From an uncultured Thermoplasmatales archaeon (lineage in GTDB: Archaea > Thermoplasmatota > E2 > DHVEG-1): a stretch of 64,000 nucleotides of DNA. This document shows positions 3,001 to 19,152 of the stretch, one piece after another (position 1 is the stretch's first letter; each line of letters opens with the position of its first letter). Location: the NCBI GenBank assembly GCA_964391965.1, contig CAYMOC010000001.1, positions 21,216 through 85,215 on the forward strand, in the 5' to 3' direction. The notes beneath the pieces were generated by a model that saw nothing but the letters and a program-made list of their open reading frames with translations, was not told where the DNA came from and searched no databases. A program made the position numbers and the translations under genes.

Positions 3001-6000
3001 AGGTATTACTACTCCAAGAGTGAAATTATCTATAACTGTTTTACCTGAATGAGCATGATTGAAATTAAAATCAAGTGAACCAGATGACATACTGTTTATT
3101 ACTAAAGCAAAACCAGTAGATGTACTGCCAGAGTTCTGGAAAGTAAAATCTCCATCCATATACACTCTGTTTTGATTTGGACCAGTTGCACCGGCTGAAA
3201 CTTTTAGACTTGTTACACTAGCGCTACTAATAGAACCTGAGAACGCGAATTTTCCACTAAGATCATCAACGGAAACCATTGTACCATCTACTTGTAATAA
3301 AATTGCGCCGCTATTTGTAACAGATCTTACTCGACTAGATGAAACTGCAAGGCCACCAGTGATTCCTGAAACTGTTGCACTAACAGCAAAATCAAGATTT
3401 GTTATCTCCATGATTTTTTGACTAGTATGTTGGTTTTCTAATACTATATCAAATGTTTTTTCATCAAAATCTGCAAATGCATAAATCCTTGTTGATCTGC
3501 CAGTGTTTTGATCCATATGAAACTCGCCAGCAAGCGATACATCAAAAGCACCGGTTCCTACACCAACAGCACCATCTATGTAGAAATTATCCAAAGTAAT
3601 TTTAGCGTTACTTTCAAGTGTGAAACAAATATCACCAGAAATGTCATCAAGTGTTATTCCCTGGCCTTGTAAACTGTTTATAATGCCCATAATGTTCACA
3701 CTAGTTATTTCTAATAACAATGATGAGCCGCTGTCTTTATGGAAATAATCAACACCAGTTGCTGCATGAAGAACACCAGCGACATAAACTTCTAAATCAA
3801 GATGCTCGATAGTTATTTGTGGAGAATTCTCTGTTTCAAATTTCACGGTTAACTCATCGTCTTCTGTATTATAATCAAAATAGAATGTTCTTTGACCGGA
3901 TCCTTGATCTATTGTTCTTTGGAATTTATCACAGCTAAGATCTACACTGAAAACTGTTTCAATACCTACTGAAAACAAAAAGTCTTCCATAAGAAAATCA
4001 AGGTTTCGGTTTACATCTCTATCGATTGTAACCGAGATATATTCTTCTTTAATCCATTCGATAGTTGTTTCTCCATAGGTTTGACCGGTTGAATCCTTGG
4101 ATATATCACCTTGTATTACAAAATTAAAATCACCAGACAATGGATAAAGTTGGTTGTCTTTATCAACATTTAATTCTAAATCTATCTCTAGATCTATATC
4201 AGATGTGGATTGTTTTGTTCTCTCCCAACTAATTGTTCCATCATCTTGACTTATGTCAAACGTGAAATTTGCACCAGCATTATTTGATTTGATTTTCTGA
4301 ATATCAAGAGCAAAGATATCTCTGACTATGAAAGTAGCTGATTGTATATCAACTAATAATGTGCCTTCAGCATTAAAAACAAAATCATCTGTTCCAAGTC
4401 CATTCCATGAAAGATTAAATATACCGTCACCTGAGGAAAACGTAAATATTCCTGAAACTTGGAAAACAAGATCATCACCTTCATATTTGGAGAAATCTAC
4501 ATCCATATATGCTGATCCAGAAGGCCCGACTCTTATCCAACCCTGTGAAAAATCTTGAGCAATATCCCATGTAACATTTTGTACTGTAACATTTAAACCA
4601 AAAGTATACGTTTTTGGACCTATCAAATGCAGTGTTGGTTTATTCCAACTGAACTCATTAGCTCTGATATATAATCCAAATAATTCTAACTGAGATGAAA
4701 GAACTATTTCTCCAGCTAATGATATTCCGCCTCCATCATTTTGGCTGTTAAATTGTAAAAATAACCCACCATCTTTAGGAGTAGTAGTATCATAAACTAG
4801 TTTATCTATATGAATAGTTGAATCGACATCATCAAAACCTTCAATTGGTAAAAATGAAAGATCTAAATTATTAGCTTCAATATGTATATCTTCTATAGTG
4901 AGTTCATTTCCAATTTTACTACGAGTTATATCAACAGAGTTATCTTCAAAATCAAGTTCTACTTCAAAACTAGTGGGTTCATTAGAACTTTTAATTTCTA
5001 AACTACTCCATGAAAAACTACCTTCAAATGGTTCATCATTTCCTCCTTCTTCAGGTAATTTTTCAATTGTAAGATCAACATTAAAATCTCCTATGTTGAC
5101 ATACGTAGATTTTTCTTTATGTATTTCAAATTTGAAAGTTCGATCTCCGAAATCAAAGTTTTTAACAACAACAAGAACGCCTGATCCTGAGGATATTAAC
5201 TCCATTTTAGTTGGAAGAACATTTGAATAATATTCTCCATCGTAACAACGTGCTACAATAAGATAAATACCAGCTGTTATTTCTGATGTATCCCAATCAT
5301 AATTCCAACTACTCCAGTCACTGTTATGATTGGTAACATTCACCCATGAATATTCCGTGTTAGTTCCAGCGAAAGTATTTTGTGGCAACATAGCTAGTTG
5401 AACTTGTTCTATAGATCTACCAGAATAGCCTTTGAAAGCCTGACCTTGGACGTTTACAACATCTTCAACAACTGCATGCAATGAAGGGTTATCTATACGT
5501 ACAGACGGAGGATTAAAAGATGGACCGTTATCAACATTGACATAAATAATATCTGTATCTTCATAGCCCATACTATCTAAGCATCTTGCCTCAATAGGAT
5601 AATAACCATTACAAACTGTTTTAGAATCCCAATCAAAATCCCAAACTTCTTTACCCGACGCATCTTGCCATTCACCATTATTTATTCTTATTTGAACAAG
5701 ACTTATAGGTCTTCCTTGTGTAGCAGCAGTTGCTGTACCATTAATTTTTACGATATCTGAAACATCTGAACCATCAAAGGGACCTGTAATATTTATGACA
5801 GGGTTTTCAACCTCGTCTTCAACATTTAAAGTAATAATATCAGGTGGAGAATGAAAGTTTCCATCAAAACTTCTAGCTCTAACTAAATAAGTACCAGGTT
5901 CAAGATCTGAAGCATCCCAATTATAAGTCCAGGAACTTGTACCAGATGCTGAAGCCCAACCTTCATCATTTCCAATTGATAATTCAACTGATTCAACAGG

Positions 6001-8709
6001 GTGACTGCTTGAACCAGGTGAAGCTGAACCTTTTATCGAAATAACTCCTTTAACAGTTGACCCATCAGATGGTGAATTAATTTGAACAGAAGGTATTTGA
6101 ACCTGTCCTTTTACAACAGTTACTGAATCTATTACAGAGTAACGATATCCATCATAACTACGAGCTTCTATTATATGCTCGCCATTTGAAACAGATGAAG
6201 TATCCCAACTATAATCCCAGTAACTATCTCCATTGGCTTCCATCCAACTTCCTTCATCAACACGAACTTCAACTTTTTCAACAAGCCTAGTATAGATTCC
6301 AGAGTACGCTGTACCCTCAATTGACACCATTCCATCAACTACATCTCCATCTGAAGGTATAATTATTCTAACTGTTGGAACAACATGATTTGCAACTATA
6401 ACAGATAAAACATCTAATGATGAATAACGACTTCCATCATAACTACGAGCCTTAATGATATGTTCACCATCATCTAGTACTGTGGTATCCCAACTGTAAC
6501 TCCATTTCTCGGTTCCAGTGACCTTTTTCCATCCATTGTTATCAATCATCACTTCGACTTTATCAATAGAACTTCCACCTTCACCAGGAGCTGCAGTTCC
6601 AGTTATTGTAACAATATCAGAAACAACTGGAGTTTCAAGTTCATCAGCATTAGGATATGTTATATTAACAGTTGGAACAATTACTTCTTTTATTACTATA
6701 TCAGAGTCGATACTATCTATTGTGAACTCACAATTTTTCGATACAAATATTCTTACAGCAGCCGCATCAACCCTATCAATTATAGATTGCCTTAATGGCA
6801 GAATTGGAGTGAAAGAAACAGTCAACTCGCCACTATCTGAATATGTTTTTGAAAAATCAATATTTCTAACGTCAAGATCAAAATCAACAACTCTATTACC
6901 TAATAAACCACTTAAACCGGTCATATATATTGGTATTTCATTTGCTTCAACAACTAATTTAGATATTGAGAAATCCCAGCCGTTGCTAATACTAACTCCG
7001 ATTCCAGCTTCTGCATCATTTATTGGACCTCTTAGAATGCCGCCTACATCAAGAATAAATGGTTGATCGCTACTTCTCGATATATGCCCATCTAATGAAA
7101 GATAAAGATAGTCGGATGTTACATCTATGAATATGTCTCTTTCTATGTCTAGATTATTTTTTATTTCAAAGTAGCCTGTTAAGAGTTTAAAAACAATGGT
7201 AACATCTAATATTCCATCTGATTCTATCGAAAATTCTGTTGTGCAATCTCCTCCAAGCATTCCTATTGTTTCAAAATAACCATTCAAAGATAGTCTTTTA
7301 TCCGCATATACATGGATTTTGTTTTTTCTAATAATGTTTAAATCATAGTTTATTGTACCGCTTGTTGGAAGATCAGAAAGATAAAGGCATTCTTTTGGAT
7401 TAAATAAATCATCAAACCAACCGATTTGACTTATAGATTCATCCCCTGAATCAAGTTCAATCCATCCTTTCATTATTGACAAACCCAATGAAAAAGAGAA
7501 TTGTTTTGGTAGATACTTAATATAAAAATAATCTAAATCCGAGAAAACATCAATGTTTCCTGCTAATTGTGAGACTAAACCATTATATCTATAAAAAATG
7601 ACATTAACGTTTTCTTTACTTATGCGCTCATAAGATATATCAATTTCAGGGCTGATAATTTTTATATTACTTTTAAAGACTAATTCTGTTTTCTTTGGAA
7701 GATTCTCTATATAAAAACCAAGACGCACAATTTCAAAATCTTCAGTTTCTACATTCCACTGTACATCCACACTCGTTTGTTCATCAACTTGAACTGATAA
7801 TTCTCTATTATTAAAACCAAGAATGTCATTGAGTTTTACAGTACCTTTCACAAATTTTTCAAAATTAAAAGCAAGTTCTCCCTCAAAAAGCCCCAGAACC
7901 AAAGTTAACCTATCATTTTTACTATCCCCTGGATTTATTTCAAAAATATGAGTTGGTTTTTTTACAGGATTTAACAGATTAGGAGCGAGTTTATATGTAA
8001 CAGTGCAACTTGATGGTATCTGTTCACCTTGAAGAGATCTGTATCCAAAATCTACACTTTTACCATCAAGATTACTTAAAAGAAAACCAGGAAAATTCAG
8101 TCTTGCATAAGCCTCTAAAAAATCTTTATTATTAATACTGCTACCACTTAGAAGTTCTATATTCAGGTTAAAATTAATAGTAAAAGACAGGGTTTTAAAA
8201 TCAAAACCAGGCAACACTGTCACACGAGCAGAAACATCATCTCCACCCGTTCCATCAACATCAACCTTAACAGTTTGAAACAAACCTAAACCAGTACTTG
8301 TTTCAACACCAGAATAATTAGTATGAAAAGTAAGCAGATTATCTAAAAAACCAAGTAATCTATGATCTCTGGAACCATCTAACAAACGAAAAGAACTATC
8401 ACTTTCATTATCATCATTTTTATCTCTATTAAAAAAATCTTTGATTTTTTCTTTAGCAGAAGAAAACCTCTGACCAAGCCGGGTATCCTTAAAACCACCA
8501 TTCAACAAACCAGAATTTTCTTTAGTGTCTGTTTGGTTATTTTCATCTAAATTTTCAGTATCTTCTTCTGATTTATCTAAAATAGAAGCATTAACAGTTG
8601 ATGTCGCCACAGACAGCAACATCATTAGGACTGCTAAAATTGATACGATTTTAATTGATTTTTTCCAATAGTTTTTTATTGAAACCTTATCATCTATTAT
8701 CTTTTTCAT
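1..8709 (-). CDS. Giant secreted surface protein, paralog B. It is partial, with the ATG at 8709 and the reading frame leaving the window at position 1, so more than 2900 aa lie in the window. It has a signal peptide, ~95-aa Ig-like repeats, a PKD domain near 640-800 and beta-rich modules.
   Basis: The ORF track shows no stop-delimited minus-strand ORF in 1-8700, consistent with one frame running off the edge. My reverse-complement reading of 8650-8709 gives MKKIIDDKVSIKNYWKK followed by a hydrophobic signal segment. The N-terminal ~250 aa are nearly identical to the gene at 8953-19152. The PKD motif YLWTFGDGGTSTEKDPAHTYTSTGTYTAEITVTDDSG was read from the reverse complement of ~640-800. Confidence 0.7.
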   Translation of the reverse strand, partial: MKKIIDDKVSIKNYWKKSIKIVSILAVLMMLLSVATSTVNASILDKSEEDTENLDENNQTDTKENSGLLNGGFKDTRLGQRFSSAKEKIKDFFNRDKNDDNESDSSFRLLDGSRDHRLLGFLDNLLTFHTNYSGVETSTGLGLFQTVKVDVDGTGGDDVSARVTVLPGFDFKTLSFTINFNLNIELLSGSSINNKDFLEAYARLNFPGFLLSNLDGKSVDFGYRSLQGEQIPSSCTVTYKLAPNLLNPVKKPTHIFEINPGDSKNDRLTLVLGLFEGELAFNFEKFVKGTVKLNDILGFNNRELSVQVDEQTSVDVQWNVETEDFEIVRLGFYIENLPKKTELVFKSNIKIISPEIDISYERISKENVNVIFYRYNGLVSQLAGNIDVFSDLDYFYIKYLPKQFSFSLGLSIMKGWIELDSGDESISQIGWFDDLFNPKECLYLSDLPTSGTINYDLNIIRKNKIHVYADKRLSLNGYFETIGMLGGDCTTEFSIESDGILDVTIVFKLLTGYFEIKNNLDIERDIFIDVTSDYLYLSLDGHISRSSDQPFILDVGGILRGPINDAEAGIGVSISNGWDFSISKLVVEANEIPIYMTGLSGLLGNRVVDFDLDVRNIDFSKTYSDSGELTVSFTPILPLRQSIIDRVDAAAVRIFVSKNCEFTIDSIDSDIVIKEVIVPTVNITYPNADELETPVVSDIVTITGTAAPGEGGSSIDKVEVMIDNNGWKKVTGTEKWSYSWDTTVLDDGEHIIKARSYDGSRYSSLDVLSVIVANHVVPTVRIIIPSDGDVVDGMVSIEGTAYSGIYTRLVEKVEVRVDEGSWMEANGDSYWDYSWDTSSVSNGEHIIEARSYDGYRYSVIDSVTVVKGQVQIPSVQINSPSDGSTVKGVISIKGSASPGSSSHPVESVELSIGNDEGWASASGTSSWTYNWDASDLEPGTYLVRARSFDGNFHSPPDIITLNVEDEVENPVINITGPFDGSDVSDIVKINGTATAATQGRPISLVQIRINNGEWQDASGKEVWDFDWDSKTVCNGYYPIEARCLDSMGYEDTDIIYVNVDNGPSFNPPSVRIDNPSLHAVVEDVVNVQGQAFKGYSGRSIEQVQLAMLPQNTFAGTNTEYSWVNVTNHNSDWSSWNYDWDTSEITAGIYLIVARCYDGEYYSNVLPTKMELISSGSGVLVVVKNFDFGDRTFKFEIHKEKSTYVNIGDFNVDLTIEKLPEEGGNDEPFEGSFSWSSLEIKSSNEPTSFEVELDFEDNSVDITRSKIGNELTIEDIHIEANNLDLSFLPIEGFDDVDSTIHIDKLVYDTTTPKDGGLFLQFNSQNDGGGISLAGEIVLSSQLELFGLYIRANEFSWNKPTLHLIGPKTYTFGLNVTVQNVTWDIAQDFSQGWIRVGPSGSAYMDVDFSKYEGDDLVFQVSGIFTFSSGDGIFNLSWNGLGTDDFVFNAEGTLLVDIQSATFIVRDIFALDIQKIKSNNAGANFTFDISQDDGTISWERTKQSTSDIDLEIDLELNVDKDNQLYPLSGDFNFVIQGDISKDSTGQTYGETTIEWIKEEYISVTIDRDVNRNLDFLMEDFLFSVGIETVFSVDLSCDKFQRTIDQGSGQRTFYFDYNTEDDELTVKFETENSPQITIEHLDLEVYVAGVLHAATGVDYFHKDSGSSLLLEITSVNIMGIINSLQGQGITLDDISGDICFTLESNAKITLDNFYIDGAVGVGTGAFDVSLAGEFHMDQNTGRSTRIYAFADFDEKTFDIVLENQHTSQKIMEITNLDFAVSATVSGITGGLAVSSSRVRSVTNSGAILLQVDGTMVSVDDLSGKFAFSGSISSASVTSLKVSAGATGPNQNRVYMDGDFTFQNSGSTSTGFALVINSMSSGSLDFNFNHAHSGKTVIDNFTLGVVIPSVSLEVQIIRDYWEKIGSGSTFFDLSASLSGSVVNLDLIYQHQGSTEKLVQGLEVSVSVFGFGLKKYFDVTRMKSKSSYTRLDFSATGVNLNTFSFNKIELDWNHGTTKSLFEFNMALFDTTFNLKNGETSGTLYACVDRVQKYATIVRSHSLNWDWFIIDTTIGGKNFNFRIENSRNFYGDLTFEWEGDLLGMKPTLMRLYTTNGVHGQYDYIKVMKNSEEIFNLIYGSHELSEFEIKVYNIQYSSNDKLKHLDFHAEWDYAGSCGSIRFLTEVIIETEFAGDVDAELTCLDGQGLNGIKEFYITSPSGITGSFDLSRNSGVKAIELTGTVDTGSEFGYKLNEKTGYTNSKHVYFTGGLSLSVLRVKDSQIRCDLTVIDVDANYVEFGVGDKNSGNTECKWIESTGTNTLNTLDLMLDFDSVDVDFDALNIKLLNNFYAKKYDWNSMSGDSNINSADEIQLNGQMQSTAGTFHLIVTKDGSTSFEITTDVSFEINANNARIGWADHASDSAKQYVWFSSQGLTDLSFNLLLGGWEFAGSVSFDGSVRFCKDSDWYHYSGAIYYGKAVEWQTDFSRNQGINQLNNGELEFTVSRNGLILDFDGLATIDLQLLSSSVGVVGIGEHENNPDSKRLFYLDTDNEDTIEYFQTAVLLDDNLGFRITGYDFGAHYHSVIMNKVLGVWIPSVYNDGIIGGVNSMDITFNGGQNEDDWYTVLGGNDPLYVDAKYNSPSNNYYGVVGEPVQFNPEVSGGDPPYSYLWTFGDGGTSTEKDPAHTYTSTGTYTAEITVTDDSGTTESDTATVTISYDDLTVTFDGDDTGTEHHDVTFEGDVTGGSENYLMYLYFGDGTHTVISESELPFSETHVYVEPGEYTAEFWVKDLQNSYEISKYHTVTIYNDPDYDLSVDLSGPSGEGSVDVSYEFTATISGSDRTAPYDYVFDFGDGETDTYSNKNNNVQSTSHSFDSTGTYDVTITVTDDNLEVASDTFTFTISSGNQAPTLS
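8150..8520. repeat. Dispersed ~370-bp repeat, copy 1 of 2. It encodes the conserved N-terminal region of the giant proteins and is ~97% identical to 18600-18965.
   Basis: Direct comparison of the two DNA stretches shows only scattered single-base differences. Confidence 0.8.
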
Positions 8710-8952: not shown

Positions 8953-11900
8953 TTATTTTGTTCCTCCATTGTGAACAAGTAGTTCTTCTGCGTAATAAGA
9001 ATGTGTTGTGTTTACTTCAAAATTATAAGTTGGTACTTTCTCATAGATTCTTTCAATTGAAAAAATCCTTTGTTTTTCCCCTTCAATATCTTGCAAGTAG
9101 TCATCTATCTTAACCTTACCAGCAGGAGTCCATTCTTCATTTACATATATTCTATGGTTTGGCGTTATCTTAAGAATATTATTGATTATCATATAATAAT
9201 CAGTCATTTCTTCTTTGGGATGATGATGTATACTTGTTACTACGGAGGTTGTTATCTCACCAGTTTTATCATCATAAGATTTAACCATATCTCCAATTTT
9301 GACATCTTCAATGTTTTTCTTTGCGTTGCCTGCCATTGTAATTTTTGATCCTGAAAGAAGACATGTTCCATCATCTGATATATGTATCGTGAAATCTTCA
9401 TAATCATCATACCAGTCTCCTTGTTCATCTGTTACATGAACTATTATATCATAATATTCATCTTGATCGCCTGAATCAACTTTTGGCTCTACCTTGAAAC
9501 GCACAGAATTGGAATCGTATTGTTTAGCAGATATTGTAACTTGAGAATCATCTTCAATGACATCATAATAACTATCCAAATTATAGTAAGTATATTGATA
9601 TTTAACTCTGAAATACAACGAGTCTCCATCTGCATCGTATGCATCTACATTAAATAAGCTAATAGCTAATTGTTCACTCACTGTTTTCGTGTCAATGTCT
9701 GTTGTAAAATATGGCGGAGATCCATCTGAATCTGTTGTGAAATACATCCAATCAGTATTAGAAGAACCACCAGAATTATCAGCACTAGCAGTCCACTTAT
9801 AAGGAGTAGAAGGCTGAAGATTATAAAACGTATGTGAAAACGTATACGGATCATAATGATCACCGCAATTATACTGAATTGGACCGGGTTTATTATGAAC
9901 CAAAACACCATCAGCAAAATAAGTATGAGTCCCTTCAACCTCAAGATTATAAGTAACAACAGGTTCAAAAACACGATCAACAGATAAAACCTCAATAGAC
10001 TCACCAGAAACATCTAACAAACTATCACCAACAACAACACTATCAGCATCAACCCAATCACCATTAACAAACAAAGGATGATCCGGAGTAACACGAAGTC
10101 TGTTATTGATAACTAAGTAATAATCACCCATCTCAACAGCATCATGAACAAAAACATGACCAACAACACTATCAACCATACTACCAGACGACTCATCATA
10201 TGATTTTACAGAATCTCCGACTTGAATATCTTCAATGCTTTTCAATGAACCATCAGCCATACTAATCAAAGTACCTGCAACAAAACAACTCTCCTGCTCA
10301 AGAATAAGCCAACAAGTAGAAGCTTCACCGCCATCATCTAAAAGCTTACCCGTCAAATAAGCCGAACTATCAGTAACACTAGTATGAGAAACAGAGTCAA
10401 TAACTGGTTTATCGGAATCCGTAGTAAAATCCTCATCGTTACCATGGTTTGAACCAGCGTCATTGCTAGCCCATGCACGGAAATGATAAGTGGTACACTT
10501 AGATAGGCCAGTAACCTGAGTATTAAAATAACCAGTAGACGACACCGATATAGGACTAGTAGAATAACCATACGATGTAGTCAAACCATATTCAAACCAG
10601 ACATTGCAACTATTAGCACCACCCATATCAGAAAGATAACCACGTAAAAACGCAGAATTTTGAGTTACACTAGCAGCATTCTGAGTAGAAAGAGTAGGCT
10701 TATCTAAATCTGAATCTGTTGTGAAATACATCCAATCAGTATTAGAAGAACCACCAGAATTATCAGCACTAGCAGTCCACTTATAAGGAGTAGAAGGCTG
10801 AAGATTATAAAACGTATGTGAAAACGTATACGGATCATAATGATCACCGCAATTATACTGAATTGGACCGGGTTTATTATGAACCAAAACACCATCAGCA
10901 AAATAAGTATGAGTCCCTTCAACCTCAAGATTATAAGTAACAACAGGTTCAAAAACACGATCAACAGATAAAACCTCAATAGACTCACCAGAAACATCTA
11001 ACAAACTATCACCAACAACAACACTATCAGCATCAACCCAATCACCATTAACAAACAAAGGATGATCCGGAGTAACACGAAGTCTGTTATTGATAACTAA
11101 GTAATAATCACCCATCTCAACAGCATCATGAACAAAAACATGACCAACAACACTATCAACCATACTACCAGACGACTCATCATATGATTTTACAGAATCT
11201 CCGACTTGAATATCTTCAATGCTTTTCAATGAACCATCAGCCATACTAATCAAAGTACCTGCAACAAAACAACTCTCCTGCTCAAGAATAAGCCAACAAG
11301 TAGAAGCTTCACCGCCATCATCTAAAAGCTTACCCGTCAAATAAGCCGAACTATCAGTAACACTAGTATGAGAAACAGAGTCAATAACTGGCGGGTCGGC
11401 ATCGGTATTAAATGAAAAATCATTGCCATGGCTTGTACCTGCATTATTACTTGCACAAGCGCGATAATGATAAGCGGTACACTTAGTAAGACCCATTATC
11501 TGCTTATAAAAATTACCAGTGGAGTAAACCGTCACGGGATCAGTAGAACTTCCATAGTTTTCAGTTAAACCATATTCAAACCAAACTTCGCAACTATTAT
11601 CCCCACCCATACTTCCTAGATTACCACGTAAGTAAGCGGTAGTCTGTTCAATATTACCCGGGTTTAAAGTTGAAACAGTAGGAGCACTAACCAAATATAT
11701 AGTATCTAATAATGTATTATCACCATTTTCAACACTTATATCATATAAGTTACCATTGGCATAACCCGTTTTGCTAGCTTCTATGTCATATGTCCCTGCA
11801 GGAAGGTAAAGATCATAAAATCCAACAAGGTGACCGCCGGTTCCATCACTAGTATATGTTGAAAATTCTTCAGAAGTATCTTGATTTGTTGCTACAACTA

Positions 11901-14900
11901 AAACATCACCGATAGGATCCTGGGAGCCATGCTCTTTAACATAACCTCTTACTCTACCAACTGCTTTTTCAACAATAAAATAGATTTCATCATCAACATA
12001 ACCAGATTTTTCAACAGTGACTAAACAATCATTTTCATGAAACGGGTTATCATCACTTACCTCATGAGCGACAAAGTAGACACTGCCAGAGGAATCTGTA
12101 TAACCGGTATCCTCTCCAATTAAAACACCATCATCATATGACTGATAAGTAACAAAGGCATCTTCAACTGGATCTCCAGAAAAACTATCAGTTACATAAA
12201 TTTCAAAATCATCACCTTCAAATAAATCTTCACCTTGATCAACACCATCGTAAATTAATTCTATGTTAAATTCGGATAATACTGCAACATTAACTGTTGT
12301 AGAATCATTATCCTTTTTATGTAAAATGGTGTCTTTTTCTCTTACTTGTAATTTAAGTGTATATGTGCCTTCTGTATCATATATATGATCAACCGTGGGA
12401 GAGTCTAACCATCCTGTATCCCAAAATACATCTAAAGGTCCAGTGTAATCAAAATCCCATCTATATTGTAAAACATCCCCATCAGGATCTGAACTATTTG
12501 ATGCATCAAAAGTAACTGTTTCCCCAACATCTGCAGAGTAAGGTCCACCTATATCAGCATTTGGTTTTTGATTACCATATGGCCAAATTTGATCCCATGA
12601 AGCCCCGCCATCATTTGTTGCCTCAATTACAGGCTGTTCTTCTCCACTACCTATTTCTCCACCGTGATCAAAGTATGGAGGAATCCTTATGAAATCCCAA
12701 TGTATCCATTTTCCATTTGCCCAAATGTTACCGACATCAAGAATTTTAATTGCATCATTTGCACCATACCAAAATTCAAAACTAATATGTTGGATAAATG
12801 AATTAGGTGTAGTATCCATATAGAATTGTTTTATGTCGCTACTTCCACCATCTAGATCAAATGCAATAGAACAGTCACCGCTTCCTAGTGTTCTTGAACC
12901 AATCATGTGGAAATTTCCAACATCTAATGTTGTTGTTCCATCAAATCCATTATTGCTTTGGAAGTAAAACGATTTTCCAGTACCCTGGCCGTCATGCCAG
13001 ATCATATCAAAATATGATCTTAGATCTCCATTCCAATCTACTGAGCCTGCAATATCAACATTTTGTGCTGAAAAGGAAAAACCAGATACAGTACTAATAC
13101 TATCACTTGATTGTATAAGATATATTAAGTTTGAATCGCTATCAAGGCCGCCTCTAGCAATGCGTGCATTATAACCAGTTAAAGTACCTGAAATGTCAAC
13201 GACTTCTCCATTCAATGTAATCCTACAAACAGTAACGGTTATTGAACCGTCAAAATAAAAATCTTTACTCCAATCAAGACCTTCATGGAAAGTATGCCAA
13301 TCTCGATATTCTAAGCTGGAACCCGAGGACATTTCTACATTTAGATCAAGAATGGTTTGAGAGTTAAGTTGAATAGTTGATAGATACCCATCAAAACCAG
13401 CTGAGGTGGTTGCTTTTACACATTTAGCATTACCATCCATATAATCCCATTCAATAGTTATATCACTGTTTGGAGAAATTCCAAAATCAAAAGCTGAAAA
13501 AATTACATCATTATTGACTTTTAGTTGTATTATTGAGCCTTGGAAACCAGATTGAGAGTGTATAGAAAGAGTACTACCCTTTTTCCATTCAATTGTAAAA
13601 TCTCCAGCAGAAATAGATGGTATGCTAAGATAAACATGATTTCCATTTAATTCGATTTCAATATTTATCTCTAAATTCAGACCTGAATTGCTTGTAACGG
13701 TTACACTATCCAAAGTACCTTCATCGTCTTTCTCCCAATATGCACCTAGATCTCCTACTAATTGTCCATTTAATGAAAGTGAAAATGAAAATACATCTTG
13801 TATTGTTATTTCCATTATTCCAACAGATGCATCAAGATTGCTTATAAAATGGAATCCATCAATTTTGGAGTCGCTGTAACTTATTTCATCAATATCAATG
13901 GAACCACTGATACTTATCGTTCCAACATCCATGTAAAATACTTCTTCATTGTTAACATTAATTTTGATATAGCCAAGTGTAAATTGTCCTCCGCCAAAAA
14001 TGAATTTTAGGCTGTCTGGCTTAAGGTTTTTCAAAGCCCCAGTCCATTCCATTCTAATTGAGTTGTCTTCAAACTGCGCTACTCCTAAATCAACATCTAT
14101 TTTTGTATTAGTCTGTAAATCATTGAATTCAATTAAATCAACGCCAAGTACTTCTCCATCTATACCTATTTCTAAGTATTTGCTGCTTGTACTAGCTGCA
14201 AAATTTAGACTTCCTTGAAGTGTTATTTCCTGAAGAGCCGCTATATTCCAACGGTCATAAAAAGTTAATTCCAAACCAGTAATTTTTACAGTTGCTCCAC
14301 CGTTTAGATTTCCAGCTACGTAAAGGCTACCAGGCGTATATGTAAAGTATATAAAACCTTGAACACCGATATCTAGAGATGCTGTTACTATTATATCCTT
14401 AGAATTAGGTTCTACAAAACCAGTTTCAATTAAGTTAATTACACTATTTATAAATGAGCTAAGATCATATGAATCTGTAATGTTATTTATGTAGTTGCCA
14501 ATTGTATTAAGTGTATTACTACAAAATGTATCGATTTGTTCTTCAGTAAATAAAGTTAATCCTTTTGTCATGGATACATCTGCTAATACTGCTCCACTGA
14601 GGTATCCACTTACGCTATTAACTGAAAAACCTCCGTTATCATTACCGATTCCAAGTGTTGCAGATCCAGAAATTGCTCCAGAAAGTTGTAGAGTTCCACC
14701 CACATATAATGTACCAAAAGCAGGCGTACTTATTAATCCTCCTCCAGATATGTGAAGATAGCCTCCAGCATAACCGGAAACTTGTATAACTTGGTCTTCT
14801 CCTGCGATATTCAGATTTCCATATATGTATAGAGCACTAAGATATACAGAAATTTGAGGAGATTTGATAGATAAACCCACAATATGAATTCTACCAGATA

Positions 14901-17900
14901 CCCCGATAGCCCCTGAAAAACCCTCTATTTGAAATTCTTCACCAAAAACAATAGAACCTGTTGCTGATGCTTCAATTGGTAAATCAATTTCTTTACAAGA
15001 AGCAGCTAAACCTGGAGTAACAAGAGATACATCCTCAATACCAAAATCAAGTATAGCTTGTGCATCAATAGTAAGAACATTGTTTTCATTCTTATCAAAT
15101 AGGAATTCAATAAAACCAGCAGCACCAACTGACAATGAACAATAACCCAAAGAACCTGAAAAATTTGGTATAGATCCAACTAATTTTTCAATTTTAATAA
15201 TAGTAATATCTTCAGTTTCAGCATCCAATCTTAATTTAACTTTGTTTTTTGTTAAGAAAATTGTTGGATGAATATCACCATTTATTTCAATATTAGACCA
15301 GGTAACAAATATATTTTTATCAGGATAATTGAAAAGAAAATCTTTTAATGAAATATAGCCTGATAAATCAAGGTCAGCATTACCGGCACCATCTACGATT
15401 TCAAAAGAAGGTGCACCTGTCTCATTAAATTTGACTTTTACACCTAATAAACCACCATCAACATTAAAACCATAATCTAAATCTACGTTTAATAAACCTT
15501 TAATTGTCATAGAAGGGATAAGATTCCCAATTTTTTCTATATCAAAATCAAAATCTATACTTCCTTTTCCGTCACCATCAAGGTTTAAAAAGGCTAAAAC
15601 TTCTCCAGCCCAGATCTTACCCCCTCCAGAGTTGATCTGTTGCAAATTGGCTTCAAATTTACCCTCAAAAGAAAGGTTAGATATCTTTATTACATCTCTT
15701 ATGTGTAACTTAAGATTATCAACTATTATACTGGCATCGCCATCAATGGTGAAATATTTTGTTTCATCTAAAGTTTCCCAGGAGAAAACAAGGCCTTCAT
15801 TTTCACCTTGTAAGTAGAAAACACCAGATAATTCAAAAAGTAGTTCATCGCTTCCCTCTTTTTTTATGTTTAAATCTACAGAAATATAACCCTCACCGCT
15901 GATATTTATCCAACCCCACGACATATCAGGTGCAATTTCCCATGTAACATTTCTTATTGTTACATTCAACTCAAAGGTAAATTCTGTAAATCCCACAAGG
16001 TGAAGTTCCGGTTTTGCATAACTTAAATTGTTAAAGATAAAATAGAAACCAAAAAGTTCCAAATGACTTGAAAGTTCAATTTTTCCGCTTACTGATAAAC
16101 TGCCATTGTTATCATCTAAAAACGGATTGATCTCAAGATAGAAACCGCTGTTTGTAGCAGCAGTATTATCCCAAACAATCCTGTCTACATGTATCCTTGA
16201 ATCTACATTTTTTAAAGCAGGTAAAACAGAAGATAAATTAAGATTAGTTATTTCAAAATGAACATCCTTTAATACGATTTTGCTACCTGTACCGGATCTG
16301 CTTGTACTAACTGAATGATCGTTTTTATCTAAAACAAAAGAAAACTTTGAAGGAGAAGTTGAGCTTGTTATTTCAAGTGATTTCCATGAAAATTTTACTT
16401 CCATTGGATCTGGAGAATTATCATTTTTTTGTAGGAATGTTTTTTTATAATTAATATTAAGATTTGATATATTTACATATGTTGATTTTTCTTTTTCGAT
16501 TTCAAAAATTATTGAATTTTCTATAATATCTACGTTTTTAACTATCAAAGTTATGGATGCATTGTCAGAATAGTTTACACCATCATAACAACGTGCTTTG
16601 ACTATGACTCGGCCTATAGGTTTAGATGAGGAATCCCAGTTATAACTCCAACTTGTTGTACCGCTAAGATTCATCCAAGGTTCATCTGCTATTTGGATTT
16701 GAACAAGTTCAACTGGTCGACCGGATTCTCCTGGAGTTGTTGAACCGCTTATGGTGACTACACCTGAAACAGGTGGTATTACTGGATTTATTGATATAGT
16801 TGGTTTATCAATAATTTCATCATCGTCGTCATCGTCAGATCCGCCGGTTCCATTTATTTTTAGAGTTACGCTGTCTAAAGGTGAATAATATAATCCATCA
16901 TAACTACGAGCTTTTATAACATAATTTCCACCAGGATAATTTGTTGTATCCCATTCGATCATCCAATTATCCCAAGATGTACCTATCTTACTTGCTTTTT
17001 TCCAAGGGTTTTGACCGATTTTTACTTCGACATAATCTACAGAGTGTCCTTTTTGACCCGGGCTGCTTGTACCTTGAATTGTTATTGTGTTTTCAACAAC
17101 AGTTCCCTCAGTAGGAGCTGTAATATTCACATTTGGAACAGCTATCTCTGTTAAATCTAAATCAAAATCTAAACTATCAACTGTTAAACTGCATTCTTTT
17201 GAGACATATGTTTTTACTATTACTGAATCAAGTAGTTCATCCAATCCCAAGTCCCTTAATGGGAAAATTGGCATAAATGAAATAATGCCTTCTCTTGATG
17301 ATGAAGTAGTTCTTTCAAAAATTAGATTTTCTATACTAAATTCCATATCCATCATACTATGGCCTGGTATCATGTTTCCAGAATCCATGATATACACAGG
17401 TGCATCGTCTAACTCAATGTCAAGATTATGTAGAGTGAAACCTCCTCCGTTTTTAATCTCAAAGCCTAAACCAAGATCTATATCATCGACTATTATACCA
17501 TTTACAAAACCATTTAAGTCTAGGACAAAAGGTTCATTTGAGCTCTCTATATGGCCATTTCCTGAAGCATATAGAAAATCTGATTCGAAATTAAAATACG
17601 CTTCTAACTCTATAGGGTCTTTATTATCTATTTCAAATCTTCCTTTTAATAAATTAAAATATATAGTTATATCTAGATTACTTTGTGATTTTATTTGTAA
17701 TTCAAAAGAACTTTCGCTATCTAAAATACTAATTTCTGATCCGAAGGCGTTCAAAGAAAGGCCTTCTGTGTCTGAATAAAAACTGATTTCTGTTTCTCTT
17801 AACAATCCTATTCTGAACTGAAAATCTATACGGTTTGTTGAAGGAAGATCTGATAAATAAACTCCTATTTTTGGTTTAAACAAATCGTCATATAAACCAA

Positions 17901-19152
17901 TTTGGCTTATTGATTCTCCACCTGTGTTTAACTCAAGATATCCTTTTAACATAAAAGATGAAAAAATAAAAGAAACCTCTGAGGGGAGATATTTTACAAA
18001 AAAATAATTAAATTTTCTTTCATTAAATAATTCTTTATAAAACAGAATGTTAACGTTTTGACTGCTTGTTTTTTTATAACCTAATTCAATTTTTTCACCA
18101 GGCAATATTGATATTTTTGTTTTCCAGGCAAATTCTACATTTTTGGGGAGATCTTCAATGTAAAAGCCGACATTGACTGGTTTGCCATTTTTACTTATTC
18201 TTTCATGATGAAATTTTACATTTGTTTTTTCGTCTGTATTTATTGAAAATTCTCGATCATAAGGACCTATTGGGTCTTGTATTTTAATTGTTGATTTTAC
18301 ATAAGAATCATAGGTTGCATAAAAACTCCAACCTAGTGCATCACAAAATAAAGATAATTTATCGTCATCGTTACTACCAGGGTTTATTTGAAAAGAATGT
18401 CCTGGTTTTTTTGCGGGGTTTAATAGATTAGGTGCAAGTTTATATGTTACAGTGCAGCTACTTGGGATTTTTTCTTTGTTTTCAGAGATATATCCAAATT
18501 TTACATTTTGATCTGTTAGGTTTTTTATTAAAAAACCTGGGAAATTTAACTGAGCATATGCTCTTAGATATGCATTTTGATTTATACTGTTTCCACTTAG
18601 AAGTTCTATATTTAGATTAAAATTAATAGTAAAAGACAGGGTTTTAAAATCAAAACCAGGCAATACCATTACACGAGCAGAAACATCATCACCACCCGTT
18701 CCATCAACATCTACCTTAACAGTTTGAAACAAACCTAAACCAGTACTTGTTTCAACACCAGAATAATTAGTATGAAAAGTAAGCAGATCATCTAAAAAAC
18801 CAAGTAATCTATGATCTCTAGAACCATCTAACAAACGAAAAGAACTATCACTTTCATTATCATCATTTTTATTTCTATTAAAAAAATCTTTGATTTTTTC
18901 TTTAGCAGAAGAAAGTCTCTGACCAAGCCGGGTATCCTTAAAACCACCATTCAACAAACCAGAATTGTCTTGATCTTCTGAAGAGTTTGTATCTTCGATA
19001 TTTTCTTCTTTTTTAGTTTCAAATGTTGTTGCGTTTGCTGAAGAAGCTATTGTTGAAAATAGTAGGATAGTTATTATTGTTAGAACCAAAAGCTTTGTTA
19101 AATATATTTTTGAAGAACCCTGGCAGGTATTCTTCTTTAATAATTTTTGCAT
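8953..19152 (-). CDS. Giant secreted surface protein, paralog A, 3399 aa. It has a signal peptide, Ig-like repeats, a PKD domain, FN3-like domains, two internal Hint domains and a C-terminal Hint domain.
   Basis: This is a single 10.2 kb ORF in the track. The N-terminus has a hydrophobic segment ending ASSANA. A PKD motif YRWDFDYTG...GTYTLKLQV is present. The FN3-like pattern C.VWFEYGLT...KCT.YH.RA.ASN.AG recurs. Three Hint domains were identified (see the Hint-domain features at 8968-9363, 9892-10287 and 10876-11271 for the motif evidence). Confidence 0.85.
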   Translation of the reverse strand: MQKLLKKNTCQGSSKIYLTKLLVLTIITILLFSTIASSANATTFETKKEENIEDTNSSEDQDNSGLLNGGFKDTRLGQRLSSAKEKIKDFFNRNKNDDNESDSSFRLLDGSRDHRLLGFLDDLLTFHTNYSGVETSTGLGLFQTVKVDVDGTGGDDVSARVMVLPGFDFKTLSFTINFNLNIELLSGNSINQNAYLRAYAQLNFPGFLIKNLTDQNVKFGYISENKEKIPSSCTVTYKLAPNLLNPAKKPGHSFQINPGSNDDDKLSLFCDALGWSFYATYDSYVKSTIKIQDPIGPYDREFSINTDEKTNVKFHHERISKNGKPVNVGFYIEDLPKNVEFAWKTKISILPGEKIELGYKKTSSQNVNILFYKELFNERKFNYFFVKYLPSEVSFIFSSFMLKGYLELNTGGESISQIGLYDDLFKPKIGVYLSDLPSTNRIDFQFRIGLLRETEISFYSDTEGLSLNAFGSEISILDSESSFELQIKSQSNLDITIYFNLLKGRFEIDNKDPIELEAYFNFESDFLYASGNGHIESSNEPFVLDLNGFVNGIIVDDIDLGLGFEIKNGGGFTLHNLDIELDDAPVYIMDSGNMIPGHSMMDMEFSIENLIFERTTSSSREGIISFMPIFPLRDLGLDELLDSVIVKTYVSKECSLTVDSLDFDLDLTEIAVPNVNITAPTEGTVVENTITIQGTSSPGQKGHSVDYVEVKIGQNPWKKASKIGTSWDNWMIEWDTTNYPGGNYVIKARSYDGLYYSPLDSVTLKINGTGGSDDDDDDEIIDKPTISINPVIPPVSGVVTISGSTTPGESGRPVELVQIQIADEPWMNLSGTTSWSYNWDSSSKPIGRVIVKARCYDGVNYSDNASITLIVKNVDIIENSIIFEIEKEKSTYVNISNLNINYKKTFLQKNDNSPDPMEVKFSWKSLEITSSTSPSKFSFVLDKNDHSVSTSRSGTGSKIVLKDVHFEITNLNLSSVLPALKNVDSRIHVDRIVWDNTAATNSGFYLEINPFLDDNNGSLSVSGKIELSSHLELFGFYFIFNNLSYAKPELHLVGFTEFTFELNVTIRNVTWEIAPDMSWGWINISGEGYISVDLNIKKEGSDELLFELSGVFYLQGENEGLVFSWETLDETKYFTIDGDASIIVDNLKLHIRDVIKISNLSFEGKFEANLQQINSGGGKIWAGEVLAFLNLDGDGKGSIDFDFDIEKIGNLIPSMTIKGLLNVDLDYGFNVDGGLLGVKVKFNETGAPSFEIVDGAGNADLDLSGYISLKDFLFNYPDKNIFVTWSNIEINGDIHPTIFLTKNKVKLRLDAETEDITIIKIEKLVGSIPNFSGSLGYCSLSVGAAGFIEFLFDKNENNVLTIDAQAILDFGIEDVSLVTPGLAASCKEIDLPIEASATGSIVFGEEFQIEGFSGAIGVSGRIHIVGLSIKSPQISVYLSALYIYGNLNIAGEDQVIQVSGYAGGYLHISGGGLISTPAFGTLYVGGTLQLSGAISGSATLGIGNDNGGFSVNSVSGYLSGAVLADVSMTKGLTLFTEEQIDTFCSNTLNTIGNYINNITDSYDLSSFINSVINLIETGFVEPNSKDIIVTASLDIGVQGFIYFTYTPGSLYVAGNLNGGATVKITGLELTFYDRWNIAALQEITLQGSLNFAASTSSKYLEIGIDGEVLGVDLIEFNDLQTNTKIDVDLGVAQFEDNSIRMEWTGALKNLKPDSLKFIFGGGQFTLGYIKINVNNEEVFYMDVGTISISGSIDIDEISYSDSKIDGFHFISNLDASVGIMEITIQDVFSFSLSLNGQLVGDLGAYWEKDDEGTLDSVTVTSNSGLNLEINIEIELNGNHVYLSIPSISAGDFTIEWKKGSTLSIHSQSGFQGSIIQLKVNNDVIFSAFDFGISPNSDITIEWDYMDGNAKCVKATTSAGFDGYLSTIQLNSQTILDLNVEMSSGSSLEYRDWHTFHEGLDWSKDFYFDGSITVTVCRITLNGEVVDISGTLTGYNARIARGGLDSDSNLIYLIQSSDSISTVSGFSFSAQNVDIAGSVDWNGDLRSYFDMIWHDGQGTGKSFYFQSNNGFDGTTTLDVGNFHMIGSRTLGSGDCSIAFDLDGGSSDIKQFYMDTTPNSFIQHISFEFWYGANDAIKILDVGNIWANGKWIHWDFIRIPPYFDHGGEIGSGEEQPVIEATNDGGASWDQIWPYGNQKPNADIGGPYSADVGETVTFDASNSSDPDGDVLQYRWDFDYTGPLDVFWDTGWLDSPTVDHIYDTEGTYTLKLQVREKDTILHKKDNDSTTVNVAVLSEFNIELIYDGVDQGEDLFEGDDFEIYVTDSFSGDPVEDAFVTYQSYDDGVLIGEDTGYTDSSGSVYFVAHEVSDDNPFHENDCLVTVEKSGYVDDEIYFIVEKAVGRVRGYVKEHGSQDPIGDVLVVATNQDTSEEFSTYTSDGTGGHLVGFYDLYLPAGTYDIEASKTGYANGNLYDISVENGDNTLLDTIYLVSAPTVSTLNPGNIEQTTAYLRGNLGSMGGDNSCEVWFEYGLTENYGSSTDPVTVYSTGNFYKQIMGLTKCTAYHYRACASNNAGTSHGNDFSFNTDADPPVIDSVSHTSVTDSSAYLTGKLLDDGGEASTCWLILEQESCFVAGTLISMADGSLKSIEDIQVGDSVKSYDESSGSMVDSVVGHVFVHDAVEMGDYYLVINNRLRVTPDHPLFVNGDWVDADSVVVGDSLLDVSGESIEVLSVDRVFEPVVTYNLEVEGTHTYFADGVLVHNKPGPIQYNCGDHYDPYTFSHTFYNLQPSTPYKWTASADNSGGSSNTDWMYFTTDSDLDKPTLSTQNAASVTQNSAFLRGYLSDMGGANSCNVWFEYGLTTSYGYSTSPISVSSTGYFNTQVTGLSKCTTYHFRAWASNDAGSNHGNDEDFTTDSDKPVIDSVSHTSVTDSSAYLTGKLLDDGGEASTCWLILEQESCFVAGTLISMADGSLKSIEDIQVGDSVKSYDESSGSMVDSVVGHVFVHDAVEMGDYYLVINNRLRVTPDHPLFVNGDWVDADSVVVGDSLLDVSGESIEVLSVDRVFEPVVTYNLEVEGTHTYFADGVLVHNKPGPIQYNCGDHYDPYTFSHTFYNLQPSTPYKWTASADNSGGSSNTDWMYFTTDSDGSPPYFTTDIDTKTVSEQLAISLFNVDAYDADGDSLYFRVKYQYTYYNLDSYYDVIEDDSQVTISAKQYDSNSVRFKVEPKVDSGDQDEYYDIIVHVTDEQGDWYDDYEDFTIHISDDGTCLLSGSKITMAGNAKKNIEDVKIGDMVKSYDDKTGEITTSVVTSIHHHPKEEMTDYYMIINNILKITPNHRIYVNEEWTPAGKVKIDDYLQDIEGEKQRIFSIERIYEKVPTYNFEVNTTHSYYAEELLVHNGGTK
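8968..9363 (-). other. C-terminal Hint (Hedgehog/intein-like) domain of giant protein A. It runs from CLLSGSKIT to ELLVHN and is followed only by GGTK-stop.
   Basis: The Cys codon is at 9361-9363 and the Asn codon at 8968-8970. Block B TPNH and block G HN are present. There is no homing-endonuclease insert. Confidence 0.7.
9892..10287 (-). other. Internal Hint domain, copy 2 (C-proximal). It is inserted within an FN3-like domain of giant protein A.
   Basis: The domain runs CFVAGTLISMADGS...RVTPDHPLFV...GVLVHN. Its Cys is at 10285-10287 and its HN at 9892-9897. The residue after the HN is Lys (KPGP), so a canonical extein +1 nucleophile is absent. Confidence 0.7.
10876..11271 (-). other. Internal Hint domain, copy 1. 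Its amino-acid sequence is identical to copy 2.
   Basis: The DNA and protein match 9892-10287 exactly, offset by 984 bp. Confidence 0.7.
18600..18965. repeat. Dispersed repeat, copy 2. It is the counterpart of 8150-8520.
   Basis: Near-identical DNA. Confidence 0.8.

Follow-up and report, generated by a model that had tools for sequence, protein, structure and literature searches.

Intein-like Hint domains inside FN3-like domains and at the C-terminus of a giant secreted protein from an uncultured Thermoplasmatales archaeon

A stretch of 64,000 nucleotides from contig CAYMOC010000001.1 of an uncultured Thermoplasmatales archaeon (this whole stretch is called the window) encodes a giant secreted protein of 3,399 amino acids as one open reading frame (ORF; 8953..19152, minus strand), and its sequence is the same as that of the database protein P0120. 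The C-terminal part of this protein carries intein-like Hint domains, and the locus raises the question of which branch of the Hint superfamily these domains belong to and what they may be doing inside a protein of this kind. Scans of the six-frame translation with hidden Markov models (HMMs) detected exactly three Hints in the window, all of them within the giant protein. Two are nested inside FN3-like domains and the third lies at the extreme C-terminus. A putative Sec-type signal peptide is seen in the sequence at the N-terminus (MQKLLKK...LLVLTIITILLFSTIASSANA followed by TT, with the presumed cut site between MQKLLKKNTCQGSSKIYLTKLLVLTIITILLFSTIASSANA and TT), and direct reading of the 3,399-residue sequence did not find any C-terminal hydrophobic segment or membrane anchor.

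The Hint domains and their FN3-like host domain

Nucleotides 9724-11691 correspond exactly to residues 2488-3143 and consist of two consecutive units of 984 nucleotides or 328 residues, all features of which lie on the minus strand. Each unit is composed of an intact FN3-like domain of about 99 residues (FN3a), followed by a second one (FN3b) which is split by a Hint of 132 residues. In the first unit, FN3a1 (11395..11691, residues 2488-2586) matches positions 2-98 of an HMM built from external members of its family, with an independent E-value (iE) of 1e-33. The N-terminal half of FN3b1 (11272..11394, residues 2587-2627; HMM positions 2-34, iE 3e-5, and found also by BLASTP of the spliced form) ends in ...STCWLILEQES with a Cys at -9, and the C-terminal half (10708..10875, residues 2760-2815; HMM positions 60-98, iE 6e-7) starts with KPGPIQYNCGDHYDPY, having Lys at +1 and Cys at +9. 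Between these halves lies Hint1 (10876..11271, residues 2628-2759), which is recognized by Pfam and TIGR models as well as by a structure model and Foldseek. The second unit repeats the order, with FN3a2 (10411..10707, residues 2816-2914; HMM positions 2-98, iE 2e-34), the N-terminal half of FN3b2 (10288..10410, residues 2915-2955), Hint2 (9892..10287, residues 2956-3087) and the C-terminal half of FN3b2 (9724..9891, residues 3088-3143), the two halves being assigned with the external-family HMM and Hint2 from sequence and HMM scan. An acidic beta-rich domain of 120 residues (9364..9723, residues 3144-3263), which has weak Pfam matches only, then fills the interval between FN3b2 and Hint3 (8968..9363, residues 3264-3395), identified by Pfam and PDB sequence matches. 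On translation of the ORF, the tail GGTK and the stop codon (8953..8967) form the entire 'C-extein' of Hint3.

The sequences of Hint1 and Hint2 are the same, starting with CFVAGT, holding TPDH as block B and ending in VHN, after which K follows. Hint3 starts with CLLSGS, holds TPNH and ends in LLVHN; it has 45% identity with Hint1 over the same length of 132 residues and with no gap. PT-HINT (PF07591) was found to be the top Pfam family in three stretches, with 150 bits and an E-value of 6e-44 in comparison to a gathering cut-off of 27.7. The Pfam families Hint, Vint, Intein_splicing (70 bits) and Hom_end_hint likewise exceed their cut-offs, the match to Hint (PF01079) covering only positions 10-95 of the 213 in its profile, and so do the NCBIfam/TIGR models of the N-terminal and C-terminal intein splicing regions. 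One 328-residue unit was modelled with AlphaFold2 from an alignment of 76 sequences, giving a predicted local distance difference test (pLDDT) value of about 97 for the Hint part, and the Foldseek search of this part against the PDB returned Hint folds only. Cys1, T-x-x-H and H-N are present in Hint1/2 and in Hint3 and form invariant or near-invariant columns in the 76 homologues. The retention of the catalytic residues in paralogues which are just 45% identical argues for retained catalysis. At third codon positions the Hints have a GC content (GC3) of 0.17-0.23, the same as the host genes, which marks the Hints as long-resident rather than recent arrivals, and a recent horizontal gain was ruled out on this ground.

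Removal of exactly Cys1 to Asn132 leaves an FN3-like domain of the canonical length of 99 residues. The FN3b flanks, spliced in silico, align over their whole length with each of the intact neighbours (BLASTP E-value 2e-8, 28-34% identity). To avoid circularity, an independent HMM was made from 406 copies of the family, all taken from other proteins and organisms. The 9 and 16 residues beside the Hint fill exactly the 25 profile positions which remain unmatched between the N-flank and the C-flank of FN3b. An exhaustive HMMER search seeded with the two intact FN3a copies collected 40,059 representatives of the family (E<=1e-3), and a single protein can hold as many as 40 copies; a word-index homologue search with a single FN3a copy returned none, which in view of the HMMER result reflects a limit of that method and not an absence. 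The consensus of the family reads ...SAtLnG...vsFeYGtttsYG...TtYHfRa.a.N..G...G.d.tFtT. The insertion point lies directly after the hallmark motif FEYG (LILEQES in FN3b), where the profile alignment places the turn that follows strand C. When 36 external copies were made into a profile, it matched the FN3 domains of titin, contactin, DCC, neogenin and fibronectin in the PDB, and among these copies Pfam fn3 is found in 16 and Pur_ac_phosph_N in 24. Judged from these profiles, the host family is a true FN3 relative. The match of the FN3b halves in register and the exact fit in length indicate that the host fold is being maintained.

The Hints contain a single cysteine, Cys1, and the cysteines of FN3b lie exactly at -9 and +9 from the junctions (residues 2619 and 2768 in the first unit, 2947 and 3096 in the second). 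A disulfide between them, if formed, could staple the hairpin which carries the Hint. A switch of disulfide partner from strand F to strand C' was also considered and dropped, since cysteines 34 and 71 of FN3a would sit at opposite poles of the FN3 fold.

The two modules are related by an exact repeat of 684 nucleotides. Copy 1 (10708..11391) is 100% identical to copy 2 (9724..10407), which spans precisely one FN3b with its Hint, and the identity begins and ends at the FN3b domain boundaries. The FN3a copies before and between these modules have only about 70% nucleotide identity, and 59% at the amino acid level. A simple old tandem duplication of the 984-nucleotide unit cannot explain such divergence of FN3a beside perfect identity of the split FN3b, and the pattern at sequence level indicates that the Hint-bearing module by itself underwent a recent duplication or gene conversion. 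An assembly cause, e.g. strain variants or assembly collapse, is unlikely because the DNA of the FN3a copies in between has diverged by about 30%.

An earlier sequence-only reading of the window had described two units of 328 residues at 9724-11691, each with a 132-residue Hint (Cys1, TPDH, HN and then Lys) without an endonuclease insert, and had taken the flanks of the Hint for the two halves of one FN3-like domain. The profile search and the structure prediction that it proposed both bear out the Hint assignment, and the boundaries, the length and the nested position hold as described, the last of these by the BLASTP alignment as well as by the 25-for-25 fit of the independent HMM. It was right about the two nested Hints, and it overlooked the terminal Hint3 and the exact 684-nucleotide repeat.

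Class and relatives of the Hint domains

The best PDB sequence match of Hint1 is 2LWY, the BIL (bacterial intein-like) domain of Clostridium thermocellum, over the full length and with an E-value of 2e-13. The next matches are to BIL2 of Tetrahymena BUBL1 and to a Hint-containing protein of 1,368 residues, and the best intein has an E-value of 3e-4. In case of Hint3, BIL domains are again ahead of inteins, and Tetrahymena BIL2 is the top match (E-value 2e-10). The Foldseek list is led by BIL2 (template modelling (TM) score 0.82) and 2LWY (TM score 0.84, root mean square deviation 1.9 A, 34% identity), and the DnaB, RecA and gp41-1 inteins as well as Hedgehog rank below them. The residue at +1 is Lys after Hint1 and Hint2 and Gly after Hint3, i.e. 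none of Cys, Ser and Thr, and no Hint has an endonuclease insert, each being of 132 residues. The +1 residue varies in a set of 72 homologous Hints, where Lys is the commonest (19 of 72) and Cys, Ser or Thr stands in 10 of 72. These findings support the placement of the window Hints in the BIL-A/PT-HINT branch of the superfamily and not with the intein type.

The A type of BIL reportedly goes back to Amitai et al. in 2003 and Dassa et al. in 2004. The traits that define it, no +1 nucleophile, no endonuclease and a non-conserved host, have been summarised (PMC4031507, PMC7765530). The window Hints resemble it in a Hint fold of about 130-140 residues, Cys1, T-x-x-H and a C-terminal His-Asn, as well as in the missing +1 nucleophile, the missing endonuclease and the location in non-conserved secreted proteins. 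They differ from it in that the host is archaeal, whereas BILs, as the name says, have a bacterial host, and in that Hint1 and Hint2 are nested in a folded FN3-like domain rather than placed between domains, with Hint3 at the extreme C-terminus. Such a nested position in a folded domain recalls inteins and is unusual for a BIL or PT-HINT. In their chemistry, type A BILs form the thioester, cyclise the Asn and can ligate the flanks via the freed amine, with cleavage as the dominating outcome (PMC4031507).

On the PT-HINT side, this family is the best Pfam match of the window Hints, and most of their database relatives are of PT-HINT type. However, the toxin-type relatives (within L004-L158), which are bacterial proteins taken from GTDB genomes and from metagenomes, carry the Hint 80-200 residues from the C-terminus; the residue after HN is usually T, A, S, N or D, and Cys is nearly always found at +2 or +3. 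This Cys is lacking in the window Hints, which moreover fall in a separate small clade. No toxin-like domain was found by Pfam after any window Hint, only the FN3 halves, an FN3 domain, the acidic beta domain or GGTK, and no immunity gene was found directly downstream, the next gene being a paralogous giant ORF. For these two reasons the polymorphic-toxin reading was rejected. Zhang et al. 2012 (PMC3482391), who examined more than 225 archaeal genomes, state that only about 15 of them have classical polymorphic toxin-like systems.

Tetrahymena thermophila BIL2, from the polyubiquitin-like BUBL1 locus (PDB 6Y75/6TMM), shares with the giant protein the presence of multiple Hints per polypeptide and has the closest fold. 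It is on the other hand eukaryotic and cytoplasmic, flanks ubiquitin-like domains without being nested, and uses an acceptor lysine at a place other than +1. Class 1 mini-inteins have the common fold, the catalytic blocks A, B, F and G and a clean in-frame insertion beside the most conserved motif of a domain, where excision restores the length; this last likeness applies to Hint1 and Hint2 only. They differ by their +1 Cys, Ser or Thr, by a housekeeping enzyme as host instead of a lineage-specific surface protein, and by a similarity to the window Hints which is much weaker than that of BILs in both sequence and structure. Hedgehog/Hog proteins compare best with Hint3, which is likewise the last domain of a secreted protein in which only the chemistry of the N-junction matters, and 1AT0 is a significant fold match. 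Hint3 nevertheless lacks a sterol-recognition region and keeps its His-Asn, and the match is far more distant than those to the BILs.

Among natural relatives, the closest Hint homologues (46-56% identity) include unnamed proteins from Thermoplasmata, Thermoplasmatales and Methanobacteriota metagenome-assembled genomes (MAGs), and the homologue search gave no ortholog above 56% identity across the Hint-bearing module of the giant protein. A neighbour-joining tree calculated from 228 Hints places Hint1 and Hint3 in one clade of six. The four other members are a Thermoplasmatales giant of >4,450 residues with S after HN (L002), a Methanobacteriota protein which has an internal Hint and starts with a type IV pilin-like helix (L001, 1015-3777), a beta-helix protein from a sediment metagenome with K after HN (L079), and a protein of 1,858 residues in which a Hint, again with K after HN, follows an intact FN3 among six copies of the FN3-like family (P0186). 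L079 and P0186 are large secreted proteins without taxonomic assignment. The combination of a type IV pilin-like N-terminal helix with an internal Hint of this sub-family, as in L001, was seen also in P0003 and P0004, and such proteins are both archaeal and bacterial. Taken together, the sequences are best explained by an archaeal-dominated sub-clade, apparently housed in large secreted multidomain proteins, to which the window Hints belong.

Beyond this clade, a secreted Cys-rich protein of 1,322 residues in a Nanoarchaeota MAG (L005:7254-11219, JAHIYL010000094.1) carries four tandem Hints after its signal peptide, each of which ends in HN followed by K, with the next Cys1 within 1-3 residues. 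In alpha-2-macroglobulin-like proteins of 1,825-1,858 residues (L087:367-5841, L088, L083 and L003) the Hint lies between the bait-region and A2M domains. Many relatives stop 0-6 residues past HN, so that only N-junction chemistry can matter there. Lys is the commonest +1 residue of the non-toxin Hints, whether internal, tandem or terminal. A Hint was seen in a virus as well: the 210 kb viral contig UViG_3300025141_000020 of IMG/VR (L160) encodes a Cys-rich protein of >1,741 residues with an internal Hint, which has K after HN and 43% identity with Hint1. L161, unlike L160, holds a true intein, which has C after HN, contains an insert and lies within a radical-SAM QueE-like gene.

The Hint-bearing genome is archaeal and belongs to the Thermoplasmatota, as judged from its encoded proteins. 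The window encodes the archaeal markers FEN-1 (with 461 bits, which exceeds the equivalog cut-off), PurP, Taw2 and a prenyltransferase of the DGGGP-synthase type, and it encodes XPD as well. All FEN-1 relatives which carry a source name are from Thermoplasmatota, Thermoplasmata or Thermoplasmatales, including SG8-52-4, with 66-73% identity. The FEN-1 proteins of the close relatives have 79-86% identity.

The sequence-only reading had thus been right in placing the Hints in an archaeal giant secreted protein, which has 3,399 residues and a putative signal peptide, and in preferring BIL to intein, as the E-values of 2LWY and of the best intein and the order of the Foldseek list show. Its view that the layout is that of BILs in secreted proteins stands for the non-conserved secreted host and suits the nested position less well, since the Hints of the bacterial relatives retrieved lie between domains. 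Its judgement that splicing was unlikely agrees with the missing +1 nucleophile and is still too strong, because type A BILs do splice without one even though cleavage dominates (PMC4031507). It had also held that BIL domains were apparently undescribed in archaeal surface giants. Our search of the literature on BIL, PT-HINT and Hint with archaea or surface proteins found no published description of such archaeal proteins; related Hints are, however, already present unnamed in public archaeal MAG proteins, so BILs in archaea are undescribed rather than unseen.

Proposed fate of the Hint domains in the exported protein

The reading which we tentatively favour, at somewhat less than an even chance, is that the three Hints are catalytically competent A-type BIL/PT-HINT domains which excise themselves after export, the FN3 halves being re-joined and Hint3 being shed. 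By analogy with the tested BILs, each Hint would fold after Sec export and its Cys1 would turn the upstream peptide bond into a thioester. The terminal Asn would then cyclise, by which the downstream bond would be cut and the Hint of 132 residues released. Hint1 and Hint2 would sit on the hairpin tip that follows strand C, which would keep the FN3 halves side by side. The freed amine of Lys+1 may then attack the thioester and re-join the FN3b halves, following the nucleophile-free splicing route of type A BILs, with N- or C-terminal cleavage products of Hint1/2 as side products. The C-extein of Hint3 is merely GGTK, hence this domain can affect only its N-junction; it would shed itself there and the mature protein would end at Thr3263. 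Re-joining is favoured because the maintained FN3 halves and their exact-length fit imply that the host domain must still form, and the pre-folded sandwich would help it.

Several observations weigh against this reading. In tested type A BILs cleavage outweighs splicing (PMC4031507), and re-joining is perhaps a minor outcome. The hallmark FEYG...YG beside the insertion is degenerate in FN3b, which could be a sign that an intact hairpin is not required any more. In the AlphaFold2 unit model, pLDDT values of the FN3 parts are below 50, the loop geometry coming from the profile alignment only, and the window FN3 copies taken alone score below the Pfam threshold; the FN3 fold assignment thus rests on the family profile. 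The FN3-like family occurs in three of the 294 other Hint-bearing proteins retrieved, and a Hint nested in this family occurs in none of the 294. Further, the two nested modules are identical in DNA and are effectively one independent example.

The alternative that survives best is pure autoproteolysis, which we consider unlikely though deserving serious attention. Here self-cutting in the style of PT-HINT splits the exported giant into three or four pieces with no re-ligation, and the pieces either dissociate, the distal part being shed, or stay joined non-covalently via the nicked FN3 sandwich. An autoproteolysed SEA or GAIN domain is an analogy for such a nicked domain. PT-HINT as the best Pfam family, a +1 residue which is not a nucleophile, the degenerate motif at the insertion site and the predominance of cleavage in tested type A BILs (PMC4031507) are all in its favour. 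However, the downstream part consists of FN3 halves and adhesin-like domains, with neither a toxin nor any other effector that could be released, and the FN3b halves keep the family signatures and the exact canonical length, which would be expected if the domain must form.

Quite unlikely, in our estimate, is a thioester-driven ligation elsewhere, in which the Cys1 thioester reacts with an external amine or hydroxyl (of a lipid, the S-layer or a lysine of a neighbouring protein) or with the side chain of Lys+1 to give an isopeptide, and the Hints, especially Hint3, covalently anchor or cross-link the protein. This would resemble the cholesterol transfer of Hedgehog and the ubiquitin-like conjugation mediated by BIL2. 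The giant protein ends in a Hint although its signal peptide looks cleavable and a C-terminal anchor is missing, and terminal Hints with tails of 0-6 residues recur in relatives. Tetrahymena BIL2, the closest structure, ligates via a lysine amine with formation of a Lys isopeptide (PMC8616854), and Lys, the commonest +1 residue in the 72 homologues, follows all four tandem Hints of the Nanoarchaeota protein. On the other hand, Hint3 is not followed by any extension for the recognition of sterols or lipids, Lys may stand at +1 for other reasons, and the reading is inferential throughout. An extension of the favoured reading borrows from this one, and we give it a low probability: the nested Hints would cis-splice with Lys+1 as acceptor (by its alpha or epsilon amine), the hairpin being perhaps pre-stapled by Cys(-9) and Cys(+9), and the Hint3 thioester would attach the C-terminus to a surface acceptor. 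If true, this would be an ATP- and sortase-independent system for the maturation and anchoring of archaeal surface giants.

It is also improbable that the Hints are permanent non-catalytic insertions, remaining as extra globular domains which protrude from the FN3 hairpin. The adjacent termini of a Hint would allow such placement in a loop without disruption of the host fold, but all catalytic residues are kept in two paralogues 45% identical, and it is hard to see what structural role a Hint with just four residues after it would play at the terminus. The identification of the Hints as canonical class 1 mini-inteins or as the pre-toxin module of a polymorphic toxin can be dismissed as very improbable. 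The nesting in a conserved domain with blocks A, B, F and G would suit the former and a PT-HINT score above the Pfam cut-off the latter, but the sequence already contradicts them: the +1 residue is Lys or Gly instead of Cys, Ser or Thr, the Hints match BILs far better than inteins, and their host does not belong to the conserved housekeeping proteins. Moreover, none of the Hints has a toxin behind it, and a giant paralogue takes the place where an immunity gene would be expected.

Genomic setting and meaning

Upstream of the repeat units, the giant protein contains a PKD domain (residues 2194-2287) and a CarboxypepD_reg-like domain (residues 2401-2483), both found by Pfam (11704..12573, minus strand); these are adhesin-type extracellular domains. 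Directly downstream of its gene lies the second giant ORF (1-8709, minus strand), which runs off the window after >2,903 residues. It is a paralogue of the first, with 48% amino acid identity over the first ~880 residues and 87% nucleotide identity over ~590 nucleotides near the 5' end; its C-terminus, along with any Hints there, falls outside the window. A Peptidase_C25 (gingipain-like) protein of 731 residues is encoded nearby (30765-32960, plus strand). Extracellular cysteine peptidases of the Peptidase_C25 type are typical of sediment Thermoplasmatota (MBG-D).

Earlier descriptions and tests of BIL and PT-HINT domains come from bacteria and ciliates and mostly present them as a means of releasing a C-terminal piece. 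In the giant protein this branch occurs in a Thermoplasmatota archaeon, free of toxins and placed both inside an FN3 domain and at the extreme C-terminus. If the Hints merely cut, the locus would be an archaeal case of a known autoproteolytic module, which would be useful for annotation and unsurprising. The FN3-Hint-FN3 segment of about 230 residues offers a compact natural substrate with which nucleophile-free splicing could be recognized as a biological outcome or as a mere side reaction, and the terminal Hints raise the possibility of thioester-based attachment. Our study also suggests that this clade of Hint domains is used for maturing large surface proteins in uncultivated archaea.

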